Below, piece by piece: positions 5,830 to 42,554 of a DNA stretch of 64,000 bases (position 1 is its first letter; each line of letters opens with the position of its first letter). The notes under the pieces were generated by a model that was not told the DNA's origin, did not search any database, and saw nothing but the letters and a program-made list of their open reading frames with translations. The stretch comes from Candidatus Omnitrophota bacterium (GTDB lineage Bacteria; Omnitrophota; Gorgyraeia; Gygaellales; Profunditerraquicolaceae). The stretch spans positions 388,322 through 452,321 of the forward strand of contig JAQUQW010000001.1 in NCBI GenBank assembly GCA_028716245.1. The letters run 5' to 3'. The position numbers and the translations under genes are program-made.

Positions 5830-6915
5830 ATGCCGAAAGTAAAAGTTAATTTAGGTAAACGGTCTTACGCGATAATTATCGGATGCGGCGTCCTCAATCA
5901 GCTTGGCGAAAATTTAGGTAAATTAAATCTCGGCACAGACGCCTTTATTATTACCAATAATTTCTTAAAAGATAAATACGGGGCAAAGTTATCCTGCGTT
6001 TTATCAAACGCCGGGTTTAATTGGCGTTTTAAGATTGTCGCGGATAGCGAGAAAAGCAAATCCATCCAAACAGCAAGCTCGGTAATTAAAGATCTAGCTA
6101 AATTCGACCGGAAGAAAAAAGTTTTTATTATAGCCTTCGGCGGGGGAGTAGTTGGGGACCTAGCCGGTTTTGTGGCTTCGGTTTATAAGCGGGGAACCAG
6201 TTACGTTCAGGTACCGACGACCCTGCTGGCTCAGGTAGATTCAGCTATCGGCGGAAAAACAGCGGTTGACCTGGATTCAGGCAAAAATTTAGTCGGCGCC
6301 TTTTATCAGCCAAGGCTTGTTTTTAGCGACATTGATTTTTTAAAAAGTTTAAATAAAGAACAGCTTTGTTCGGGAATGGCGGAGGTCATCAAATACGCGG
6401 TAATCAAAGATAAGGGGCTTTTTAATTTCCTGGAGAACAAACATAAGGAAGTAATTGCGGGCAAGGCATCCGCTCTTGAAACGATAATTTGTTCCTGCAG
6501 TAAGATCAAGGCAAAGATAACCAGCAGCGATGAAAAAGAAACTTTGGGGATAAGGACTATTCTTAACTTTGGGCATACGATAGGGCATGCAATCGAAGCC
6601 GCAGGCGGCTATCGCGGCTGTAATCACGGCCAGGCAGTTGGGTTAGGCATGATTGTTGCTGTCGATCTAAGCAGCAAACTTAACCTGATTGACGCCAAAT
6701 CCGCCGCCCGCATTGAAAATTTAATTAAACTTTACGGCTTGCCTGCCAAAATTAAAGGCCTGTCCACGGATAAGATTATTCAAGCCCATTATCACGATAA
6801 GAAATTTTCGGGTAAAGAAAATAAATTTGTGCTTATCCGCGGAATTGGCATACCTAAAATTATCCGTAATATTAGACTGGATTTAATAAAAGAGGCAATC
6901 GCAAGGATAGTTTAG
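5830..6915 (+). CDS. aroB: 3-dehydroquinate synthase
   Basis: GGGVVGDLAGF nucleotide-binding motif and HAIE metal-binding histidines; 361 aa. Confidence 0.85.
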   Translation: MPKVKVNLGKRSYAIIIGCGVLNQLGENLGKLNLGTDAFIITNNFLKDKYGAKLSCVLSNAGFNWRFKIVADSEKSKSIQTASSVIKDLAKFDRKKKVFIIAFGGGVVGDLAGFVASVYKRGTSYVQVPTTLLAQVDSAIGGKTAVDLDSGKNLVGAFYQPRLVFSDIDFLKSLNKEQLCSGMAEVIKYAVIKDKGLFNFLENKHKEVIAGKASALETIICSCSKIKAKITSSDEKETLGIRTILNFGHTIGHAIEAAGGYRGCNHGQAVGLGMIVAVDLSSKLNLIDAKSAARIENLIKLYGLPAKIKGLSTDKIIQAHYHDKKFSGKENKFVLIRGIGIPKIIRNIRLDLIKEAIARIV

Positions 6916-35376: not shown

Positions 35377-36924
35377 ATGTTAAATCTTGCCTTTATCTTT
35401 CATATGCACCAGCCGTATTATAAGGACCTCTTAACGCAAGAGAGTGATCTTCCCTGGGTCAGGTTACACGGCGTTAAGGATTACCTGGATATGGTACAGA
35501 TCCTGGAAAAATTCCCTAAGATCAAACAAACCTTTAATGTTGTGCCGTCTTTATTCGAGCAGGTCGAAGATTATAATAATGGAAAAGTAAGCGATAAATA
35601 TCTTGAGTTAAGTAAAAAACCGGCAGCGGAATTATCCAAACATGATCAGGAATTTGTCCTGCAGAATTTCTTTTCCATAAACAACGAAAAAGTGATCTCC
35701 ACTTTTCCGCGTTATTACCAACTCCACTTCAAAAAACACCATCGCCTGGAATTCTTGACCCAGGATTACCTGGACTTGCAGCTTTTGTTTAATCTGGCCT
35801 GGATCGATCCGTCTTTCCGGCAGAATATCCCTGAACTTAAAAAAATAGTCTTAAAGGAAAGATTCTTTAATGAACAGGATAAGGCAACTGTCCTGGATAA
35901 ACAGTTAAGCATCTTAAAAGAAATTATCCCTGCCTACTGCCTTTTTAAACAGAATAACCAGATTGAGATCAGCGTTACTCCTTATTATCATCCCATCTTG
36001 CCGCTTCTTTGCTCGACGAACACCGCCAAAGAAGCAAACCATAAAACAATCTTGCCCAAAGAAGAGTTTCGCTATCCGCAAGACGCAAAAGATCAAATTG
36101 ACAGCGCAGTAAAATATTATCGGGAGAGGTTTGGCTGTCCGCCGCACGGTATGTGGCCGTCGGAAGAAGGAGTAAGCGAAGAGATCCTGCCGTTTATTAT
36201 TAAATCCGGGATAAAGTGGGTAGTTACCGACGAGGCAATTTTATTTAAATCTTTAAAGATAAAAAAACGTGACACTAAGCTCCTTTATCAGCCTCACCTG
36301 TTAAAAAGGAAGGAGGGGGAGCTGAATATTGTTTTTCGCGACCGCAACCTCTCGGATTTAATCGGTTTCTCTTATCACAAGATGAAAGAAACTGAGGCGG
36401 TAAATAACTTTATGGCGCATTTGGAAAATATCCACAAAACCTTCAAAAACAAGGATATCCTGGTAACCGTAGCCATGGACGGAGAAAACGCCTGGGAATA
36501 TTTCCGCAATGACGGCCATGATTTCCTGGAATTATTTTATAAACATCTATCCGAAGCGCCTTTTGTAAAAACTACCACCGTCAGCGAATATTTAAAAAAT
36601 AACCCGCCGGAAAAATCAGAAATAAAACACTTAAGCGCGGGCAGCTGGATCTATGGAGAATTCGGCAAATGGATCGGCAGCCCCTATAAAGTAAAAGCCT
36701 GGGAGTGGCTGACGCAGGCGCGCAAAGCAATAAAAGAAACTAAAGAACCAGGCGAGCTGGCCTGGAAGCAAATGTATATCTTAGAGGGCAGTGATTGGTT
36801 CTGGTGGGCAGGAGAAGACCCGGATGGCTCATTTGACCGGCTGTTCAGGCTGCACCTGACTAACTTTTATAAGCTAATTGACAAAGAGCCGCCGGCATAT
36901 CTCTCCAAGCCCTTAACCCCTTGA
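35377..36924 (+). CDS. glycoside hydrolase family 57 (alpha-glucan branching/amylase type)
   Basis: GH57 N-terminal signature FHMHQPYY and a typical 515-aa length. Confidence 0.85.
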   Translation: MLNLAFIFHMHQPYYKDLLTQESDLPWVRLHGVKDYLDMVQILEKFPKIKQTFNVVPSLFEQVEDYNNGKVSDKYLELSKKPAAELSKHDQEFVLQNFFSINNEKVISTFPRYYQLHFKKHHRLEFLTQDYLDLQLLFNLAWIDPSFRQNIPELKKIVLKERFFNEQDKATVLDKQLSILKEIIPAYCLFKQNNQIEISVTPYYHPILPLLCSTNTAKEANHKTILPKEEFRYPQDAKDQIDSAVKYYRERFGCPPHGMWPSEEGVSEEILPFIIKSGIKWVVTDEAILFKSLKIKKRDTKLLYQPHLLKRKEGELNIVFRDRNLSDLIGFSYHKMKETEAVNNFMAHLENIHKTFKNKDILVTVAMDGENAWEYFRNDGHDFLELFYKHLSEAPFVKTTTVSEYLKNNPPEKSEIKHLSAGSWIYGEFGKWIGSPYKVKAWEWLTQARKAIKETKEPGELAWKQMYILEGSDWFWWAGEDPDGSFDRLFRLHLTNFYKLIDKEPPAYLSKPLTP

Positions 36925-36959: not shown

Positions 36960-37532
36960 ATGAATAAGAAAGAAATCTACGAACATCTGGCGAATATTTA
37001 TCTGGATGCCTCTTCTAAATCATCAAAGAAAAAAAATAAATTCAGCCCTTATCCTAAAGCAATATGGGGCATCGTAATTTTGGGATTGGTAACCGCCTTA
37101 GGTTTAGGCAGCGCGGTTACTTATTTCCATATTAATAACCGCAGTCCCAAAGGGCAAATCGCCTTATTTTTATATCAAGATTCGGCTAAAATAAATTTTA
37201 ACTTTGATCCCGCCAAAAGAGAAACTTTTTCCATCAACCTTAAACAATTAAATTTATCCAAATATAAAGCCTTGGCCTTTAGCGTAAGAAAAACTAACTC
37301 TAAAGATATAATTTCATTAAGGGTGGAATTTATTAACCGCTTTAATGAAAAATCCGAAGTTTACGTGAAAGATATTTCCGGTAAATGGACGCAGGAAAAC
37401 TTGGATTTTAGCCGTTTTGCTAAAATGAACGACTGGACCCAGATGAAGGCATTGGCTTTTAGCATTGAAGAATGGAACGCCCGCGAAAAATCAGGCATAG
37501 TTTATCTTGATAATATAAAGGTAATCAAATAA
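36960..37532 (+). CDS. membrane-anchored protein with internally repeated beta-rich ectodomain (possible carbohydrate-binding module)
   Basis: Basic N-terminus, one TM, two repeats (KYKALAFSVRK / QMKALAFSIEE); ends in a CBM-like ..IVYLDNIKVIK. Confidence 0.35.
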   Translation: MNKKEIYEHLANIYLDASSKSSKKKNKFSPYPKAIWGIVILGLVTALGLGSAVTYFHINNRSPKGQIALFLYQDSAKINFNFDPAKRETFSINLKQLNLSKYKALAFSVRKTNSKDIISLRVEFINRFNEKSEVYVKDISGKWTQENLDFSRFAKMNDWTQMKALAFSIEEWNAREKSGIVYLDNIKVIK

Positions 37533-37547
37533 TAAGAAGGAGGATGA

Positions 37548-38642
37548 ATGCGCATAATTTCAATTGCTAATCAAAAAGGCGGCTGCGGCAAAACAACTAC
37601 ATCCATAAATTTAGCTGCCTCACTGGCATCCAATAGCCGCCGCGTCCTGCTTATTGATCTTGACCCGCAAGCCCATGCCACCAGCGGCTTAAACATCAAA
37701 GCGGAATTAAGTATCTACAATGTCCTTTCTAAAATCACGCATAAAAAAGCAAGGATTGACGAAATTATCCAGAACATCGGAGTTAATTTTGATATCGCCC
37801 CATCTTCGATTATTTTAAGCACGCTGGAACAGGAGTTAAGCGGTGAAATCGGAAGAGAGAGCCGCCTTTGGGATATCTTAAAAAGTTTTCAGAACAACTA
37901 CGATTACATTTTAATCGATTGCCCTCCAAACCTGGGGATCCTGACCATTAACGCCTTGCGGGCGGCAAACGAAATTATTATTCCGGTTGAAGCCAGCAGG
38001 TTCTCCTTAGAAGGGGTAAGCCAGTTAACCAGCATTATTAACCTGGTCAAAGAAAGGTTAAACCATAGCGTGGATTTCCGGATCCTGGTAACCAACTTTG
38101 ATTCCCGGCTGCAGCATTCGTTTAAAATGCTTGAGAAAATCAAGACTGACTACAAAAACAGAATGTTCTCTAACATTATCCACGTGAATGTAAAATTAAA
38201 GGAAGCCCAAAACGAAGGCCTGCATATACATGTTTACGATAAATACTGCCGGGGGGCAAAAGATTATTTCTCGCTTTCCCGTGAAATTATCACCCAGGAA
38301 AATACGCCTCCTGCGCCTGTTCCGCCAACAGAAAAAAACCTGGAAAAACGCATGCAAGATATCCTTAAGGAGAACCTGCCAAAATTAAATGAAACTGTTC
38401 TTTCGGTTAAAGCTCCTGATGCAAAAGAAGTTTATTTGGCGGGAGAATTCAACAACTGGAAGCTTGATGAACACAGCCGCATGGAGCAGAATAACGGCTG
38501 TTGGACCAAACACCTGGCCTTAAATAAGGGTAAATACCGTTACCGTTTCGTAATCGATGGAAATTGGGCCGAAGACCCGGAGAACCCATCAAGGCAAATG
38601 AATGCTTACGGCACCATGGATTCGTTGATTGAAATTAATTAG
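37548..38642 (+). CDS. ParA/MinD-family ATPase fused to a C-terminal CBM48 (AMPK-beta glycogen-binding) domain
   Basis: Deviant Walker A KGGCGKTTT and ParA body (about 250 aa), a Pro-rich linker, then CBM48 signature VYLAGEFNNWK...GKYRYRFVIDGNWAEDPENP. Confidence 0.75.
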   Translation: MRIISIANQKGGCGKTTTSINLAASLASNSRRVLLIDLDPQAHATSGLNIKAELSIYNVLSKITHKKARIDEIIQNIGVNFDIAPSSIILSTLEQELSGEIGRESRLWDILKSFQNNYDYILIDCPPNLGILTINALRAANEIIIPVEASRFSLEGVSQLTSIINLVKERLNHSVDFRILVTNFDSRLQHSFKMLEKIKTDYKNRMFSNIIHVNVKLKEAQNEGLHIHVYDKYCRGAKDYFSLSREIITQENTPPAPVPPTEKNLEKRMQDILKENLPKLNETVLSVKAPDAKEVYLAGEFNNWKLDEHSRMEQNNGCWTKHLALNKGKYRYRFVIDGNWAEDPENPSRQMNAYGTMDSLIEIN

Positions 38643-39004: not shown

Positions 39005-39415
39005 TTGTCAATGGCTTTAAAAAAGTTGAGCACCAATAAAAAAATAGCGAAATCCTCGCGCTTAGCGCGAGGAAAAAAGAAAATTACCAAAAAAGCTGTT
39101 AAAAAAACCAAAAAGAAACTGATCAAGAAGATGCCTGTAGCCAAGAAAAAACCGGCTGCTAAGAAAAAAGAAGGCAACCTTATCGGCACAGTCACGCATT
39201 ATTTTCCCCATGTGCAAGCCGCGGTAATCAAATTAAAAGGGCCTCTGGCAATGGGAGATACGGTAAAAATAAAAGGGCACACCACCGACCTTACCCAGGC
39301 GGTAACTTCAATGCAAATCGACCGGGTAGTGATTTCAAATGCCAAAAAAGGGGATGAAATCGGGCTGCAGGTAAATTCCCGGGTCAGGCAAGGCGATAAA
39401 ACTTATAAATTATAA
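39005..39415 (+). CDS. lysine-rich histone H1-like N-terminal tail fused to an EF-Tu domain-2-like beta-barrel
   Basis: N-terminal 60 aa are KKAVKKTKKKLIKK-type repeats; C-terminus shows a GTV...GD.VKIKG....GDEIGLQV pattern like translation-factor domain II. Confidence 0.4.
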   Translation: MSMALKKLSTNKKIAKSSRLARGKKKITKKAVKKTKKKLIKKMPVAKKKPAAKKKEGNLIGTVTHYFPHVQAAVIKLKGPLAMGDTVKIKGHTTDLTQAVTSMQIDRVVISNAKKGDEIGLQVNSRVRQGDKTYKL

Positions 39416-39517: not shown

Positions 39518-39844
39518 ATGCGCTTGCGAGGAAGGCCGAAAAAATACAGGATAGTCAAAGTTGACCCTAAAATCAGCTATTTTAGCCCTAGAGGCCGGCC
39601 GGGAAGGCCTGATGAAGTCCAGATAAAAATGGATGAATTTGAGGCCTTAAGGCTGGCTGATTACCAAGGATTAGGCCAAAAAGAATCAGCCAAGTCTATG
39701 CGCATATCCCAGCAAACCTTTAGCCGGATATTAAAGAAGGCGCGCAAGCAAGTAGCTAAGGGAATTACTACCGGATCAACCATAAGAATCCAGGGTGGCC
39801 AATACGTGTTGCTTCCCGGGAGCAGAAATGAGAAAATTAGCTGA
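39518..39844 (+). CDS. DUF134/UPF0251 family predicted DNA-binding protein
   Basis: Characteristic N-terminus RGRPKK...V...P....F.P and C-terminal HTH (ESAKSMRISQQTFSRILKKAR). Confidence 0.7.
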   Translation: MRLRGRPKKYRIVKVDPKISYFSPRGRPGRPDEVQIKMDEFEALRLADYQGLGQKESAKSMRISQQTFSRILKKARKQVAKGITTGSTIRIQGGQYVLLPGSRNEKIS

Positions 39845-40670
39845 CTTAACTAAGGAAAAGTTAATCGATTTATATCTAAATGAAAGAAAATCCTTGGGTG
39901 ATATAGCTAAAATCTATAGCGTTTCCCGGACAGCAATATATAAAAAACTTAACACTCATGGTATAAAACAACGCTCTAAATCAGAGGCAAGAATTGAAGC
40001 GCAGAAACAAAATAAGGTTCCACAGCAATTTTATGATATAGATGAGGATTTTTTCAGTACTTGGTCACCTGAAATGGCGTACGTTTTTGGCTTAATTCTT
40101 ACTGATGGATGTATTTCTGATAACGGAGTGATATCGCTTTGTATAAACGACAGAGAATTACTAGAAAAGGTTAAAAAAGCATTGCAATCCGAACATAAAA
40201 TAACACTGTCTAAGCATCAAGAAGGCTTGCATTATTTTCATTTTGCCAGGGAAAAACTTGTGGCGGACTTAGCAAAACTTGGTGTTTTACCCAGAAAAAG
40301 TCTTACGGTCAAATTCCCAAAGATTCCAGAAAGCTTCCTAGTTGATTTCATAAGAGGAGTTTTTGATGGCGATGGAAGTGTTTTCTTTGATAAACGCCGA
40401 ATAAACTGTCCATTAAGGTCTAAATTTGTTAGTGGCTCCTGTGATTTTATAGCCGGTTTACAACAAAAGTTAGAATCTTTGAATATGCCCGAAAGAACAA
40501 TCTATAAACAAAAAACCAAAAATGGATGGAGTTATATGTTTATATATGATCATAAAGATAGCTTAAAGTTATTTGAAATTTTATATAAAAATATCCAAAA
40601 TAAGCTATTTTTAGAACGCAAATATAGGCGGTTTTTAGAAGGTATAAAAGGCATTAAGGCAAAAACATAG
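39828..40670 (+). CDS. free-standing LAGLIDADG homing endonuclease with N-terminal HTH
   Basis: Two LAGLIDADG motifs (FGLILTDGCI and FIRGVFDGDGSV) after an HTH (SLGDIAKIYSVSRTAIYKKL); start moved to ATG 39828 (RBS GGGAGCAG); visibly AT-rich versus neighbours. Confidence 0.7.
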   Translation: MRKLADLTKEKLIDLYLNERKSLGDIAKIYSVSRTAIYKKLNTHGIKQRSKSEARIEAQKQNKVPQQFYDIDEDFFSTWSPEMAYVFGLILTDGCISDNGVISLCINDRELLEKVKKALQSEHKITLSKHQEGLHYFHFAREKLVADLAKLGVLPRKSLTVKFPKIPESFLVDFIRGVFDGDGSVFFDKRRINCPLRSKFVSGSCDFIAGLQQKLESLNMPERTIYKQKTKNGWSYMFIYDHKDSLKLFEILYKNIQNKLFLERKYRRFLEGIKGIKAKT

Positions 40671-40693
40671 GGAAATAAGCAAGGAGGTTTTTT

Positions 40694-40990
40694 ATGAATA
40701 CCCAAATAGAATTAGAATATTTAAAACAACTAACTCAAAAATACGGTAGCCGCTATATAAAGAGTTATTTTGGTTTTACTATGAGAGATTTTGCAAGAAG
40801 AATGGGCATTGCAGATAATACTTTTAGCCAAATATTAAAAGGCGTACGTAAAATGCAGGAGAAATATGAACAAGCATTCTTACAGGCTTTTAAAGATTTG
40901 CAGGTAGAGGAAAAATCAAAGGGTTTCAAAGAAACCCCAAATCAGGTACAAATGAAACAGCTCTATCAAAAAAAGAACAGCTTATTCTGA
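40694..40990 (+). CDS. small HTH-containing hypothetical protein
   Basis: 98 aa; RBS AAGGAGG; HTH-like FTMRDFARRMGIADNTFSQILKG; AT-rich. Confidence 0.4.
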   Translation: MNTQIELEYLKQLTQKYGSRYIKSYFGFTMRDFARRMGIADNTFSQILKGVRKMQEKYEQAFLQAFKDLQVEEKSKGFKETPNQVQMKQLYQKKNSLF

Positions 40991-41666
40991 ATACAGGACA
41001 TCTTTGGGAACTGGATATAATATATCTTATGTTAACTTGTCTATCTTGGCTAAGTGTACTTAACCCTATATGAGACAATAAGTTATTAAGAGATGTTTTT
41101 AACCTGTGGAAAAGGTAATTCTTGTTTACTTAAACTTACCGCTTTATTTTATTCCTAACAATTCAGGCAAAATTTATGAATCATCTTCCCTGGATTTTTT
41201 GCTTTTAATTAAAGATTTTATTTATGAACCTGGCCGGGTTAAAACAGTAATTGCGGGATAAATTGACCTCTCTCCGAAGCGGTTATTAACGCGGTCTAGA
41301 GCCTAAATAAGGCCTTCCCTGCGGATTTCTTCCTAAGTAAACTATTAAGAGATGCCCATAGCAAGTGACCCCGATTGCCCGATTTCCGGGCCGTTTAGCC
41401 AAAGATACACCACATTGCGCTGACTAAATTTTGCTGCCTGAGCCTTGTAGCCACCATTTCAGACAACAGCCTGATCCAAGCTGGATAACCTGGGGGTTTA
41501 TTTGAGCTCTAGGTAAAGTATATGGATGGCTGATTGACTTGGGTTTTCACTGGACTTACCGGAACTTTCCTCAAACTTACCACAGTTACCATAACTCTCA
41601 TTAAAAAAATGCAGTAATGTTAAAGTTTGCACAGATTCTCTCGTGGAATTATCATCTGATCCATAT

Positions 41667-42270
41667 TTAATATTTCCTGATTACGGTGATGAGCTTGCCG
41701 ATTACCTCAAACTCTTCAAAGATTGGCGCGTAATTTGGATTAGCCGCTTCTAAATGAAACTTACCGGCTTTACTGCGCAGCCTTTTTAAAGTCACCTCAT
41801 TATTGTCTAAAAGTGCGGCAACTATATCATTATTGTCGGCATGGGGGCGTTTCTTGATAATGGCAATATCGCTATCTAGTATCCCGGCATCAATCATGCT
41901 GTCGCCTTTAACCTTTAAAGCGAAAACATCATCAAAACCCAGGCGGCCAAGAAATAAATCATCAGCATCAACATAACCCTGAATTTCTTCATAAGCTAAA
42001 TCCGGCTTACCGGCCATGATCGTACCGATTATGGGAATTTTAAAAGACGCGCGCTGCGTTAACCCGATTGCCCGTGATTTATTATTCATCCGCCTCACCA
42101 AACCTTTCTGTATTAGGGCCTTTAAATAGTCCCTGACTGTCCCGGTAGATTTAAACCCCAGCTCCTCTCCTATTTCTCTAATTGTAGGAGGGAGCCTCTC
42201 CCCTATCCGTTTGCGGATAAAATTAAGCACCTTTTCCTGCTTTGGCGTCAAATACGGCTTCTTTTCCATG
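41667..42270 (-). CDS. lexA: LexA repressor (SOS regulator, S24 peptidase)
   Basis: N-terminal wHTH (LTPKQEKVLNFI...GEELG), Ala-Gly cleavage site (IMAGKPD), Ser/Lys dyad (GDSM...KRL); start set to the internal Met MEKKPYLT rather than the track start 42290. Confidence 0.85.
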
Positions 42271-42282
42271 GCTATAGATATA

Positions 42283-42298
42283 CCACACATTTGTGTGG
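42283..42298. promoter_or_regulatory. candidate LexA operator: perfect palindrome CCACACA-TT-TGTGTGG
   Basis: Seen in sequence 13 nt upstream of the lexA start; autoregulated lexA genes typically carry their own operator here. Confidence 0.45.
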
Positions 42299-42389: not shown

Positions 42390-42554
42390 TTAACGGCTTT
42401 GCCCCTTGCTCTTTTGATAACACTCTCTGCATAATATCGGTTTGCCGCCCTCTCTGGGTTTAAAAGGCACTTCGCATTCTTTTTTGCACTCTGCGCAAAT
42501 TGCCTTGTGCATTTCCCGGGGCCCGCCAAATCCACCACCTTGTTGATACGCCAT
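42390..42554 (-). CDS. 54-aa zinc-ribbon protein (CxxC-x17-CxxC)
   Basis: Below the 60-aa track threshold; translated by hand: MAYQQGGGFGGPREMHKAICAECKKECEVPFKPREGGKPILCRECYQKSKGQSR; perfect SD AAAGGAGGAAAC before the ATG; hairpin follows. Confidence 0.55.
   Translation of the reverse strand: MAYQQGGGFGGPREMHKAICAECKKECEVPFKPREGGKPILCRECYQKSKGQSR

Follow-up and report, generated by a model that had tools for sequence, protein, structure and literature searches.

Replicated chromosomes are untangled at dif, the site at which chromosome dimers are resolved. The site is about 28 bp long, present in a single copy, highly conserved and hard for cells to change, which makes it the kind of target that homing endonucleases favor. 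The mobile elements that, to our knowledge, exploit dif all do so by hijacking XerCD. A search of the literature for homing endonucleases or LAGLIDADG proteins together with dif, Xer or Omnitrophota returned no title or abstract that links such a gene to dif or Xer. For free-standing homing endonucleases, co-conversion and the autorepression of I-TevI, we rely on an existing framework (PMC2988022). Here we describe a locus in a 64-kb stretch of a contig from a Candidatus Omnitrophota bacterium (JAQUQW010000001.1, positions 388,322 to 452,321 of the forward strand; the whole stretch is called the window below). A gene for a free-standing LAGLIDADG homing endonuclease and a small gene for a DNA-binding partner stand there side by side, next to dif. 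On balance, we consider it probable that the two genes form an active homing-endonuclease cassette whose predicted target overlaps or adjoins dif.

The endonuclease gene is the second of three co-directional open reading frames (ORFs) that fill positions 39518–40990 of the plus strand. The first encodes a protein of 108 residues that matches the DUF134 family over its full length. The endonuclease ORF is listed from a GTG at 39795, and its true start is almost certainly the ATG at 39828, because it is preceded, at a distance of 5 nt, by a GGGAG Shine-Dalgarno sequence and because M-x-K-L opens the protein at this point in all 41 aligned relatives. This start precedes the stop codon of DUF134 (39842–39844), giving an overlap of 17 nt that is also seen in relatives. 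The third ORF has a strong ribosome-binding site, AAGGAGG, at 40681–40687. Its helix-turn-helix (HTH) profile matches are below threshold in a Pfam-type search, and an alignment of its HTH with the DUF134 profile gives an hhalign probability of 92.8% (E 3.9e-7). A preliminary description of this DNA, made from the sequence alone, had given the same three ORFs in the same arrangement, with the endonuclease ORF beginning inside the 3' end of DUF134, a small HTH gene downstream and no intron or intein around the nuclease; our ORF and profile analyses bear this out. An intron or intein can be ruled out, as DUF134 is complete (Table 1), no host gene is split, and an Rfam search of the window returned no group I or group II intron and, one tRNA excepted, no other family. 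That description had the genes right and missed that they adjoin dif at the terminus.

Judged by its sequence and structural model, the product of 39828–40670 is an intact single-chain LAGLIDADG homing endonuclease with the full fold and both catalytic aspartates, and cleavage is predicted. The LAGLIDADG_3 profile (PF14528) matches two stretches of the protein at 46.3 bits, against a cut-off of 22.5, and PHROG 4645, annotated "endonuclease", matches its full length (E 3e-48). In a family alignment of 42 sequences that are 60–90% identical to the window enzyme, the two LAGLIDADG motifs are the most conserved blocks, and D93 and D182 are invariant. Two motifs in a single chain, a passing profile search and conserved catalytic acids are what the preliminary description had proposed or asked to see, and its N-terminal HTH is likewise recovered: the AlphaFold model has three helices there (residues 9–18, 23–30 and 34–43), and profile searches match it weakly to YlxM/UPF0122 structures and HTH_7. 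A near-invariant basic segment follows, with a helix at residues 51–60 of the model, and then a flexible linker with predicted local distance difference test (pLDDT) scores of 63–73. Beyond the HTH and linker, the model (pLDDT 87; predicted template modeling score, pTM, 0.73) folds into two alpha-beta-beta-alpha-beta-beta-alpha halves. Its best Foldseek matches are I-Tsp061I (E 3.9e-10), the endonuclease domains of the TliVMA and PI-PfuI inteins, and I-DmoI, with a probability of 1.00 for I-Tsp061I, PI-PfuI and I-DmoI. I-Tsp061I is also the best sequence match among solved structures (E 9e-7). The ratio of nonsynonymous to synonymous divergence (dN/dS) is 0.10–0.15 against three relatives and 0.145 in the closest pair.

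The preliminary description had called free-standing bacterial LAGLIDADG genes uncommon. This view is not supported, since 20,877 clusters (50% identity) match the architecture of an HTH followed by two LAGLIDADG motifs at E <= 1e-3, many of them over the full length. The close endonuclease family has at least 580 members of 62–90% identity and uniform length, and all members with a named organism come from Omnitrophota. Phage and viral relatives are at most 38% identical; some are full-length and annotated as endonucleases or intron-encoded endonucleases. No phage or plasmid vector for the cassette was found. PADLOC gave weak "homing endonuclease" matches and nothing else, and a defense system was discarded as a candidate.

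The sequence just downstream of the small gene is, as judged from the following comparisons, the chromosomal dif at the replication terminus, and Xer recombination is predicted to occur there. The dif site of Bacillus subtilis has been confirmed experimentally, and reference dif sequences are quoted in PMC3025954. At cassette-free ("empty") loci of relatives, the site takes the form ACTTCCTATAATATATCTTATGTTAACT (ACTTCCTATAA-TATATC-TTATGTTAACT), which matches the B. subtilis dif at 25 of 28 positions; its XerD arm matches the Escherichia coli XerD arm at 10 of 11. The copy in the window matches the B. subtilis dif at 22 of 28 positions. Its 22-nt core is unique in the 64-kb window, and 100 shuffles produced no chance match. 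The cumulative GC skew of the window peaks at about 41 kb, and the skew is +0.039 over the 20 kb to the left of dif and −0.129 over the 20 kb to its right. The same asymmetry, with higher skew on the left, is found in 54 of 54 nonredundant loci (means +0.058 and −0.074; Wilcoxon p 1.6e-10). Large genes in the window lie almost all on the plus strand before dif, with two minus-strand ORFs of at least 270 residues among them, and all on the minus strand after it. A survey of dif sites published in 2011 covered 16 phyla, with prediction failing for Planctomycetes (PMC3025954). Independently of any homing, the present comparisons show where dif and the replication terminus lie in one clade of Omnitrophota.

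The boundaries of the cassette were defined by comparing filled with empty loci. Homologous loci of relatives are labeled L001, L009 and so on, and most of these sequences are metagenome-assembled. The cassette is about 1.2 kb long (about 39818/39822–41015) and stands in place of the variable spacer of 70–110 nt that is found at empty sites. Filled and empty alleles align through the 3' end of DUF134 to about 39818 (...AGTTCCCG); from there on, the end of DUF134 is supplied by the cassette. Homology restarts at 41016 (TATAATATATCTTATGTTAACTTG...). On the right, the junction lies within the arm of dif that XerC binds, at the boundary between its outer and inner parts. The cassette adjoins dif in every filled locus in which a dif-like site was detected, loci without DUF134 included, and each filled locus with a match has one such site, about 1.0–1.3 kb downstream of the endonuclease start. 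Across filled and empty sites alike, the dif core and XerD arm hardly vary. At the outer end of the XerC arm, six bases read ACTTCC in 62 of 63 distinct empty sites but take 23 forms in 31 distinct filled sites; in the single filled site with ACTTCC, the inner XerC arm is changed instead. The position of the junction, together with an arm that is invariant in empty sites and scrambled in filled ones, points to a target that overlaps dif.

No flanking direct, inverted or terminal repeats and no target-site duplication were found around the cassette, so that the duplicated target site for which the preliminary description had suggested looking did not appear. None of the 10 mid-size neighboring ORFs tested in the window is a recombinase, transposase or Xer gene. 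A transposon was rejected on these grounds.

The distribution of the cassette among relatives is patchy. A metagenome scan with a DUF134 alignment gave 80 loci whose orthologs are 69–88% identical to the window DUF134. Among the 52 with at least 900 nt downstream, one (L160) carries the cassette of endonuclease gene and small ORF and 51 do not; most of these 51 keep ParA and/or LexA within their 4-kb flanks. When loci are ranked by ParA identity instead, 21 of the top 22 (all at least 80% identical) are empty. A ParA tree places the window in a crown clade of 22 sequences, of which the window and L009 are filled and the other 20 are empty. The window pairs with the empty locus L101, and an exclusive sister relationship of the window and L009 appears in 3 of 100 bootstraps. 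A purely vertical core operon is what 580 uniform homologs and conserved synteny would suggest: the outer gene order (GH57, ParA-CBM48 ... LexA) is kept in closer relatives, DUF134 lies directly upstream of the endonuclease gene in about two-thirds of species-level loci, and a small DNA-binding ORF abuts or overlaps the 3' end of the endonuclease gene in nearly all relatives. The survey of empty sites and the ParA tree overturn that reading.

The copies in the window and L009 also look younger than their surroundings. Their endonuclease genes are 92% identical, and synonymous divergence (dS) between the two loci is 0.27 for the endonuclease gene, 0.79 for DUF134 and 2.4 for ParA, values that become noisy near saturation. 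Along the two loci, nucleotide identity rises from about 77% in the flanks to 83% in DUF134 and 91–95% in the endonuclease gene, stands at 84–92% in the small ORF and decays downstream. For L008 and L028, a close pair, the dS values of the endonuclease gene and its flanks are much alike (0.36, 0.30 and 0.55), and the endonuclease gene is therefore not simply on a uniformly slow clock. Several other pairs show a lower dS for the endonuclease gene, a difference to be read with an AT-rich codon usage that inflates synonymous identity. Decayed copies with frameshifts or internal deletions are present in L028, L037, L038 and L046. By these comparisons, the cassette is mobile: a homing-endonuclease life cycle is expected to leave this combination of a patchy distribution, copies that look younger than the DNA around them, purifying selection where copies are intact and decay elsewhere. 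The check for presence and absence in related genomes, proposed in the preliminary description, reveals a site that is filled in some relatives and empty in others. Of the two fates that it had left open, an active selfish element is favored by the patchy presence, the excess similarity relative to the flanks, the decayed copies and the retained catalytic residues, and a domesticated regulator is less favored.

Base composition leads to a different view of what moves. GC content is 0.327 in the endonuclease gene, 0.320 in the small ORF and 0.329 in the next 300 nt, as compared to 0.474 in DUF134 and a window mean of 0.425; the AT-rich block spans 39850–41300. All three genes had been described as AT-rich, which holds for the endonuclease gene and the small ORF but not for DUF134. 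Because the same contrast between a GC-rich DUF134 and a GC-poor endonuclease gene is found in all five homologous loci tested, low GC is a conserved trait of the endonuclease gene itself, and AT-richness was rejected as evidence of recent transfer. The horizontal origin that had been drawn from composition is upheld as mobility, on comparative data, for a unit that excludes DUF134. From the allele alignments, the moving unit is the endonuclease gene and the small HTH gene only, and DUF134 is a native, GC-normal neighbor whose last codons have been rewritten by the insertion.

These data allow us to outline how the cassette might spread. The enzyme would cut cassette-free chromosomes at or next to dif, at a site that most likely includes the outer XerC arm ACTTCC. 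The break would then be repaired by homologous recombination from a cassette-bearing copy, with the 3' end of DUF134 and the dif-proximal element serving as arms. Repair would copy the cassette in and co-convert its flanks, as in "intronless homing" (PMC2988022). The cassette sits between DUF134, the last gene of one replichore, and dif, with the endonuclease gene translationally coupled to that of its small partner. More speculatively, the N-terminal HTH may serve as an anchor at ATGTTAACTT, the invariant sequence of the XerD arm, with the LAGLIDADG core extending to the XerC arm, and the small partner may bind the cassette end beside dif, for regulation or self-protection.

A more specific version of this scheme, to which we give somewhat less than even weight, is that the endonuclease recognizes and cuts dif itself, with the HTH on the XerD arm and the core over the XerC arm. 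The cassette would then use homing rather than Xer recombination at dif, carriers would be spared by the altered XerC arm, by the dif-side partner protein or by both, and dimer resolution might be affected. If the enzyme does cut dif, it would represent a second class of elements that exploit this site, by a different mechanism. A selfish nuclease would then be in conflict with the resolution of chromosome dimers, as reflected in the scrambled XerC arm of carriers, and the enzyme would be a natural meganuclease with a target that occurs once per chromosome, in a little-studied phylum.

Several observations weigh against an active cassette with a target at dif. The evidence for this target consists wholly of the junction position and allele differences, and the contrast between filled and empty XerC arms is partly confounded by phylogeny; yet the empty loci L165 and L168, which lie outside the crown clade, also read ACTTCC. 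Sampling is biased as well, in that filled loci were collected via the endonuclease and empty ones via similarity of DUF134 to that of the window. The AT-rich codon usage lifts baseline synonymous identity (about 0.50 versus 0.44), so composition accounts for some of the excess similarity, and the dS pattern of L008 and L028 fits plain vertical descent in that pair. The search for phages and plasmids described above yielded no vector that would bring the DNA of different cells together. Finally, strong purifying selection, tight coupling to the DUF134 operon and a long association with a single locus also fit a role that benefits the host.

Such a role is the core of the alternative that survives best, in which a domesticated LAGLIDADG protein acts at the terminus as a WhiA-like regulator, a dif- or terminus-binding factor or an Xer modulator, and has been inherited vertically with the DUF134 operon and repeatedly lost. 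It would account for the purifying selection: dN/dS is about 0.1, and protein identity is at least that of housekeeping neighbors. An operon layout conserved with overlapping or abutting genes, a constant position next to dif across 54–92% protein identity, a divergence that tracks that of DUF134 (r = 0.84) and the presence of the WhiA LAGLIDADG domain among the Foldseek matches (E 3.5e-6) are also in its favor. It leaves unexplained the distribution, the mismatch in ages and the preservation of the catalytic residues. Of 52 orthologous sites, 51 lack the gene, as do 21 of the 22 loci highest in ParA identity, the window and L009 are non-sister carriers with copies that look much younger than their flanks, and frameshifted or internally deleted copies exist. 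Both catalytic aspartates are invariant, unlike in WhiA, and the closest fold matches are active homing endonucleases. We regard domestication as unlikely.

The position of the junction inside dif raises another alternative, an Xer-dependent element of the kind known as integrative mobile elements exploiting Xer (IMEX) or "dif modules". The cassette would have brought its own dif-like site, which XerC/XerD recombined with the chromosomal dif, and the endonuclease and small protein would be cargo or accessory functions, the latter for example a directionality or activation factor. Xer integration explains why the right junction lies exactly at the boundary between outer and inner XerC arm, and a different XerC arm on an unchanged core and XerD arm is the expected product of an exchange on the XerC side. 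The cassette has no recombinase of its own among the ORFs tested, the small partner weakly matches the excisionase-type HTH_17 profile, and an inverted 10-mer resembling the XerD arm lies at the left end in one subclade. However, this alternative fails the two-site test. The 31 distinct filled loci showed no further Xer-like site, at the left junction or up to 1.5 kb upstream, whether up to 7 mismatches in 28 positions were allowed or the loose pattern ATAA-N6-8-TTATG was used. In addition, the cassette stands in place of the empty-site spacer instead of being added to it, the endonuclease gene is translationally fused to the 3' end of DUF134, and the unit, at 1.2 kb without replication or transfer genes, is very small. 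Catalytic residues under selection would be left unexplained if the nuclease were mere cargo. The small protein was also considered as a factor like XafT, and this was dropped because it gave no match to DUF3653, which we take to be the XafT domain. Taken together, these points make Xer integration quite improbable. Least probable of all is a now-immobile relic, fixed here after its target vanished from the population and persisting before decay: several relatives are visibly decaying and the searches for phages and plasmids gave no vector or transfer route, but the copy in the window has kept every invariant residue and is intact, even the closest pair has a low dN/dS, and many related genomes have empty sites with an intact, invariant candidate target.

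Cassettes of different lineages differ in their small partner and in their dif-proximal end, and the two vary together: the type of partner protein changes along with the DNA between the partner gene and dif. A 68-residue HTH partner is paired with the end ATGTCGCACT, the 98-residue partner type of the window with the end TGGGAA[CG]TGGA, and a ribbon-helix-helix type with other ends. Apart from the end shared by the window, L009 and L160 (Table 1), cassettes end in ATGTCGCACT followed by 6 nt. The HTH-coding 38 nt at 39698–39735 in DUF134 and at 40802–40839 in the small partner gene are 71% identical, and the common 68-residue partner of other cassettes has no resemblance to DUF134. The sequence comparison suggests that the partner gene in the cassette lineage of the window was rebuilt from, or recombined with, DUF134.

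Sequences resembling operators occur upstream of the endonuclease gene in some relatives. Loci L023, L025, L026, L027, L029 and L032 share a conserved, near-consensus TTGACA-N17-18-TATxxT promoter 17–68 nt upstream of the endonuclease start. Overlapping the −35 box of this subclade promoter is the 10-mer AAGTTAACAT, which corresponds to part of the XerD arm in reverse complement. Only 6 copies are present in 1.77 Mb, 5 of them at endonuclease promoters of the subclade; the 10-mer could be an operator that mimics the target or an inverted Xer half-site. L001, a filled locus without DUF134 upstream, has a 90-nt endonuclease leader (positions 5910–6000 of that locus) with three palindrome-like copies of a motif (AAGACCCGGTCTT, AAGACCGGGTCTT and AAGACCGGGACTT) that look like an operator. 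Separately, one metagenome-assembled genome (L029 and L063; CAYSSS010000003.1 and CAYSSS010000057.1) carries both a dif-adjacent endonuclease and a distant HTH-LAGLIDADG paralog of 26% identity, on separate contigs.

The DNA that follows dif is itself conserved. An element of about 205 nt, counted from the right junction, is found by an nhmmer profile in 95 of 169 sequences. It lies directly 3' of the small ORF in every filled locus in which it was detected, including those that lack DUF134, and 100–140 nt after DUF134 in empty loci. The roughly 180 nt after dif are more conserved than the neighboring genes and include the invariant blocks CTGTGGAAAAG, TTTACTTAAACTTACCG and GGATTTTTTGC. A protein-coding gene was rejected, as the element shows no codon 3-periodicity. 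A structured RNA was rejected as well: minimum free energy z-scores are +0.21 and −0.85, RNAalifold shows nothing beyond the dif dyad, and the element has no match in Rfam. A possible intrinsic terminator lies within it. In an alignment test, 77.5% of cells in its stem are paired versus 73.6% in shuffles (reached by 0 of 500), its covariation is reached by 3 of 500 shuffles, and the stem is best in register; this test is weak, as the stem had been drawn from a sequence that was itself part of the test. A scan for consensus promoters and terminators gave nothing above shuffles.

Table 1. Features of the cassette, of dif and of the adjoining DNA (window coordinates).
Feature	Position	Strand	Basis or remark
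DUF134 (UPF0251) HTH gene	39518–39844	+	Pfam PF02001, 89.3 bits, profile positions 1–96 of 98
Left junction and Shine-Dalgarno sequence (GGGAG) of the endonuclease gene	39818–39827	+	Homology of filled and empty alleles stops
HTH-LAGLIDADG homing endonuclease gene, 280 residues	39828–40670	+	LAGLIDADG_3 profile, PHROG 4645, AlphaFold, Foldseek, dN/dS
N-terminal three-helix HTH, residues 9–43	39852–39956	+	AlphaFold helices; weak YlxM/UPF0122-structure and HTH_7 profile matches
Near-invariant basic segment QRSKSEARIEAQKQ, residues 48–61	39969–40010	+	Columns (nearly) invariant in 42 sequences
LAGLIDADG motif 1 (AYVFGLILTDGC; LILTDGC)	40077–40112	+	Catalytic Asp93 codon 40104–40106; T92, D93 and G94 invariant in 42 sequences
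LAGLIDADG motif 2 (FIRGVFDGDGSV; VFDGDGS)	40347–40382	+	Catalytic Asp182 codon 40371–40373; F179, D180, G181, D182 and G183 invariant in 42 sequences
Small HTH partner gene, 98 residues	40694–40990	+	DUF134-like HTH; small ORF after the endonuclease gene in nearly all relatives
Right end of cassette, ATCTTTGGGAACTGGA	41000–41015	+	Includes altered outer half of XerC arm; shared with L009 and L160 only
Chromosomal dif, ACTGGATATAA-TATATC-TTATGTTAACT	41010–41037	+	dif similarity, skew switch, uniqueness
Conserved noncoding element after dif	41038–41219	+	nhmmer profile; filled and empty loci alike
Possible intrinsic terminator, stem 41160–41167/41189–41196, then T-run	41160–41200	+	Weak
Remnant of C-terminal half of dinB (pseudogene), host context	41234–41623	−	tblastn with L008 DinB residues 200–366: 29% identity, E 4e-8; second piece in another frame
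lexA, convergent host gene on the other replichore	41667–42290	−	LexA_DNA_bind and Peptidase_S24; 87–93% identical in cassette-free relatives

The host genes around the cassette have features of their own. Relatives have an intact operon of lexA, a gene for a 102-residue protein and dinB; the window lacks the 102-residue gene and the N-terminal half of dinB. L102 also lacks dinB, apparently through an independent loss. Just past lexA, a minus-strand ORF of 54 residues (42390–42554) has two CxxC pairs and resembles a zinc ribbon. On the other side, the plus-strand gene at 37548–38642 encodes an ATPase of the ParA/MinD type that carries a glycogen-binding module (AMPK1_CBM/CBM48) fused at its C-terminus. 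It lies one gene (36960–37532) downstream of an ORF of 515 residues (35377–36924) whose counterpart in L008 carries Glyco_hydro_57, and this order is kept in relatives. From its domains, the ParA-CBM48 protein could be a positioning ATPase for glycogen granules. Between this gene and DUF134, the plus strand encodes a 136-residue protein (39005–39415) whose N-terminal half is very rich in lysine; it is kept upstream of DUF134 in relatives such as L102 and has no Pfam or NCBIfam match.

Among described enzymes, I-DmoI, I-Tsp061I, PI-PfuI and TliVMA are closest in sequence and fold. They share with the window enzyme two motifs per chain, a doubled fold and an aspartate that closes each motif. Theirs are archaeal introns and inteins, whereas the window enzyme is free-standing and bacterial, has an additional HTH and basic helix, and is 14–22% identical to them. 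WhiA likewise fuses a LAGLIDADG scaffold to an HTH in bacterial chromosomes. It has lost the catalytic residues, carries its HTH at the C-terminus and is near-universal and vertically inherited; the window enzyme has an N-terminal HTH, invariant aspartates and a patchy distribution. With IMEX such as CTX-phi, TLC-phi and the gonococcal island, and with the pdif modules of Acinetobacter, the cassette shares its placement at dif and the absence of a recombinase of its own. Those elements have two Xer sites and move by XerCD; here, a single dif is present, no second site was found in the 31 loci, and the nuclease has kept its catalytic residues.

In the way it occupies its locus, the cassette most resembles the seg and mob genes of T-even phages, which likewise lie in variable intergenic spacers between conserved sequences, are patchily distributed and replace the spacer without repeats (PMC2988022); the gradient of flank similarity between the window and L009 may reflect co-conversion of the kind described for them. 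The free-standing enzymes of T4 are of the GIY-YIG or HNH families and are borne by a phage; the window enzyme is a LAGLIDADG protein encoded in a chromosome, at dif, and has a small DNA-binding partner. I-TevI offers a further parallel, in that it combines HTH, flexible linker and nuclease modules. The sequence over the endonuclease promoter of one subclade, identical to part of the putative target, recalls the operator of I-TevI (PMC2988022). The two enzymes belong to different catalytic families and differ in domain order, and binding of the operator by the enzyme described here would be a predicted counterpart of what is known for I-TevI.

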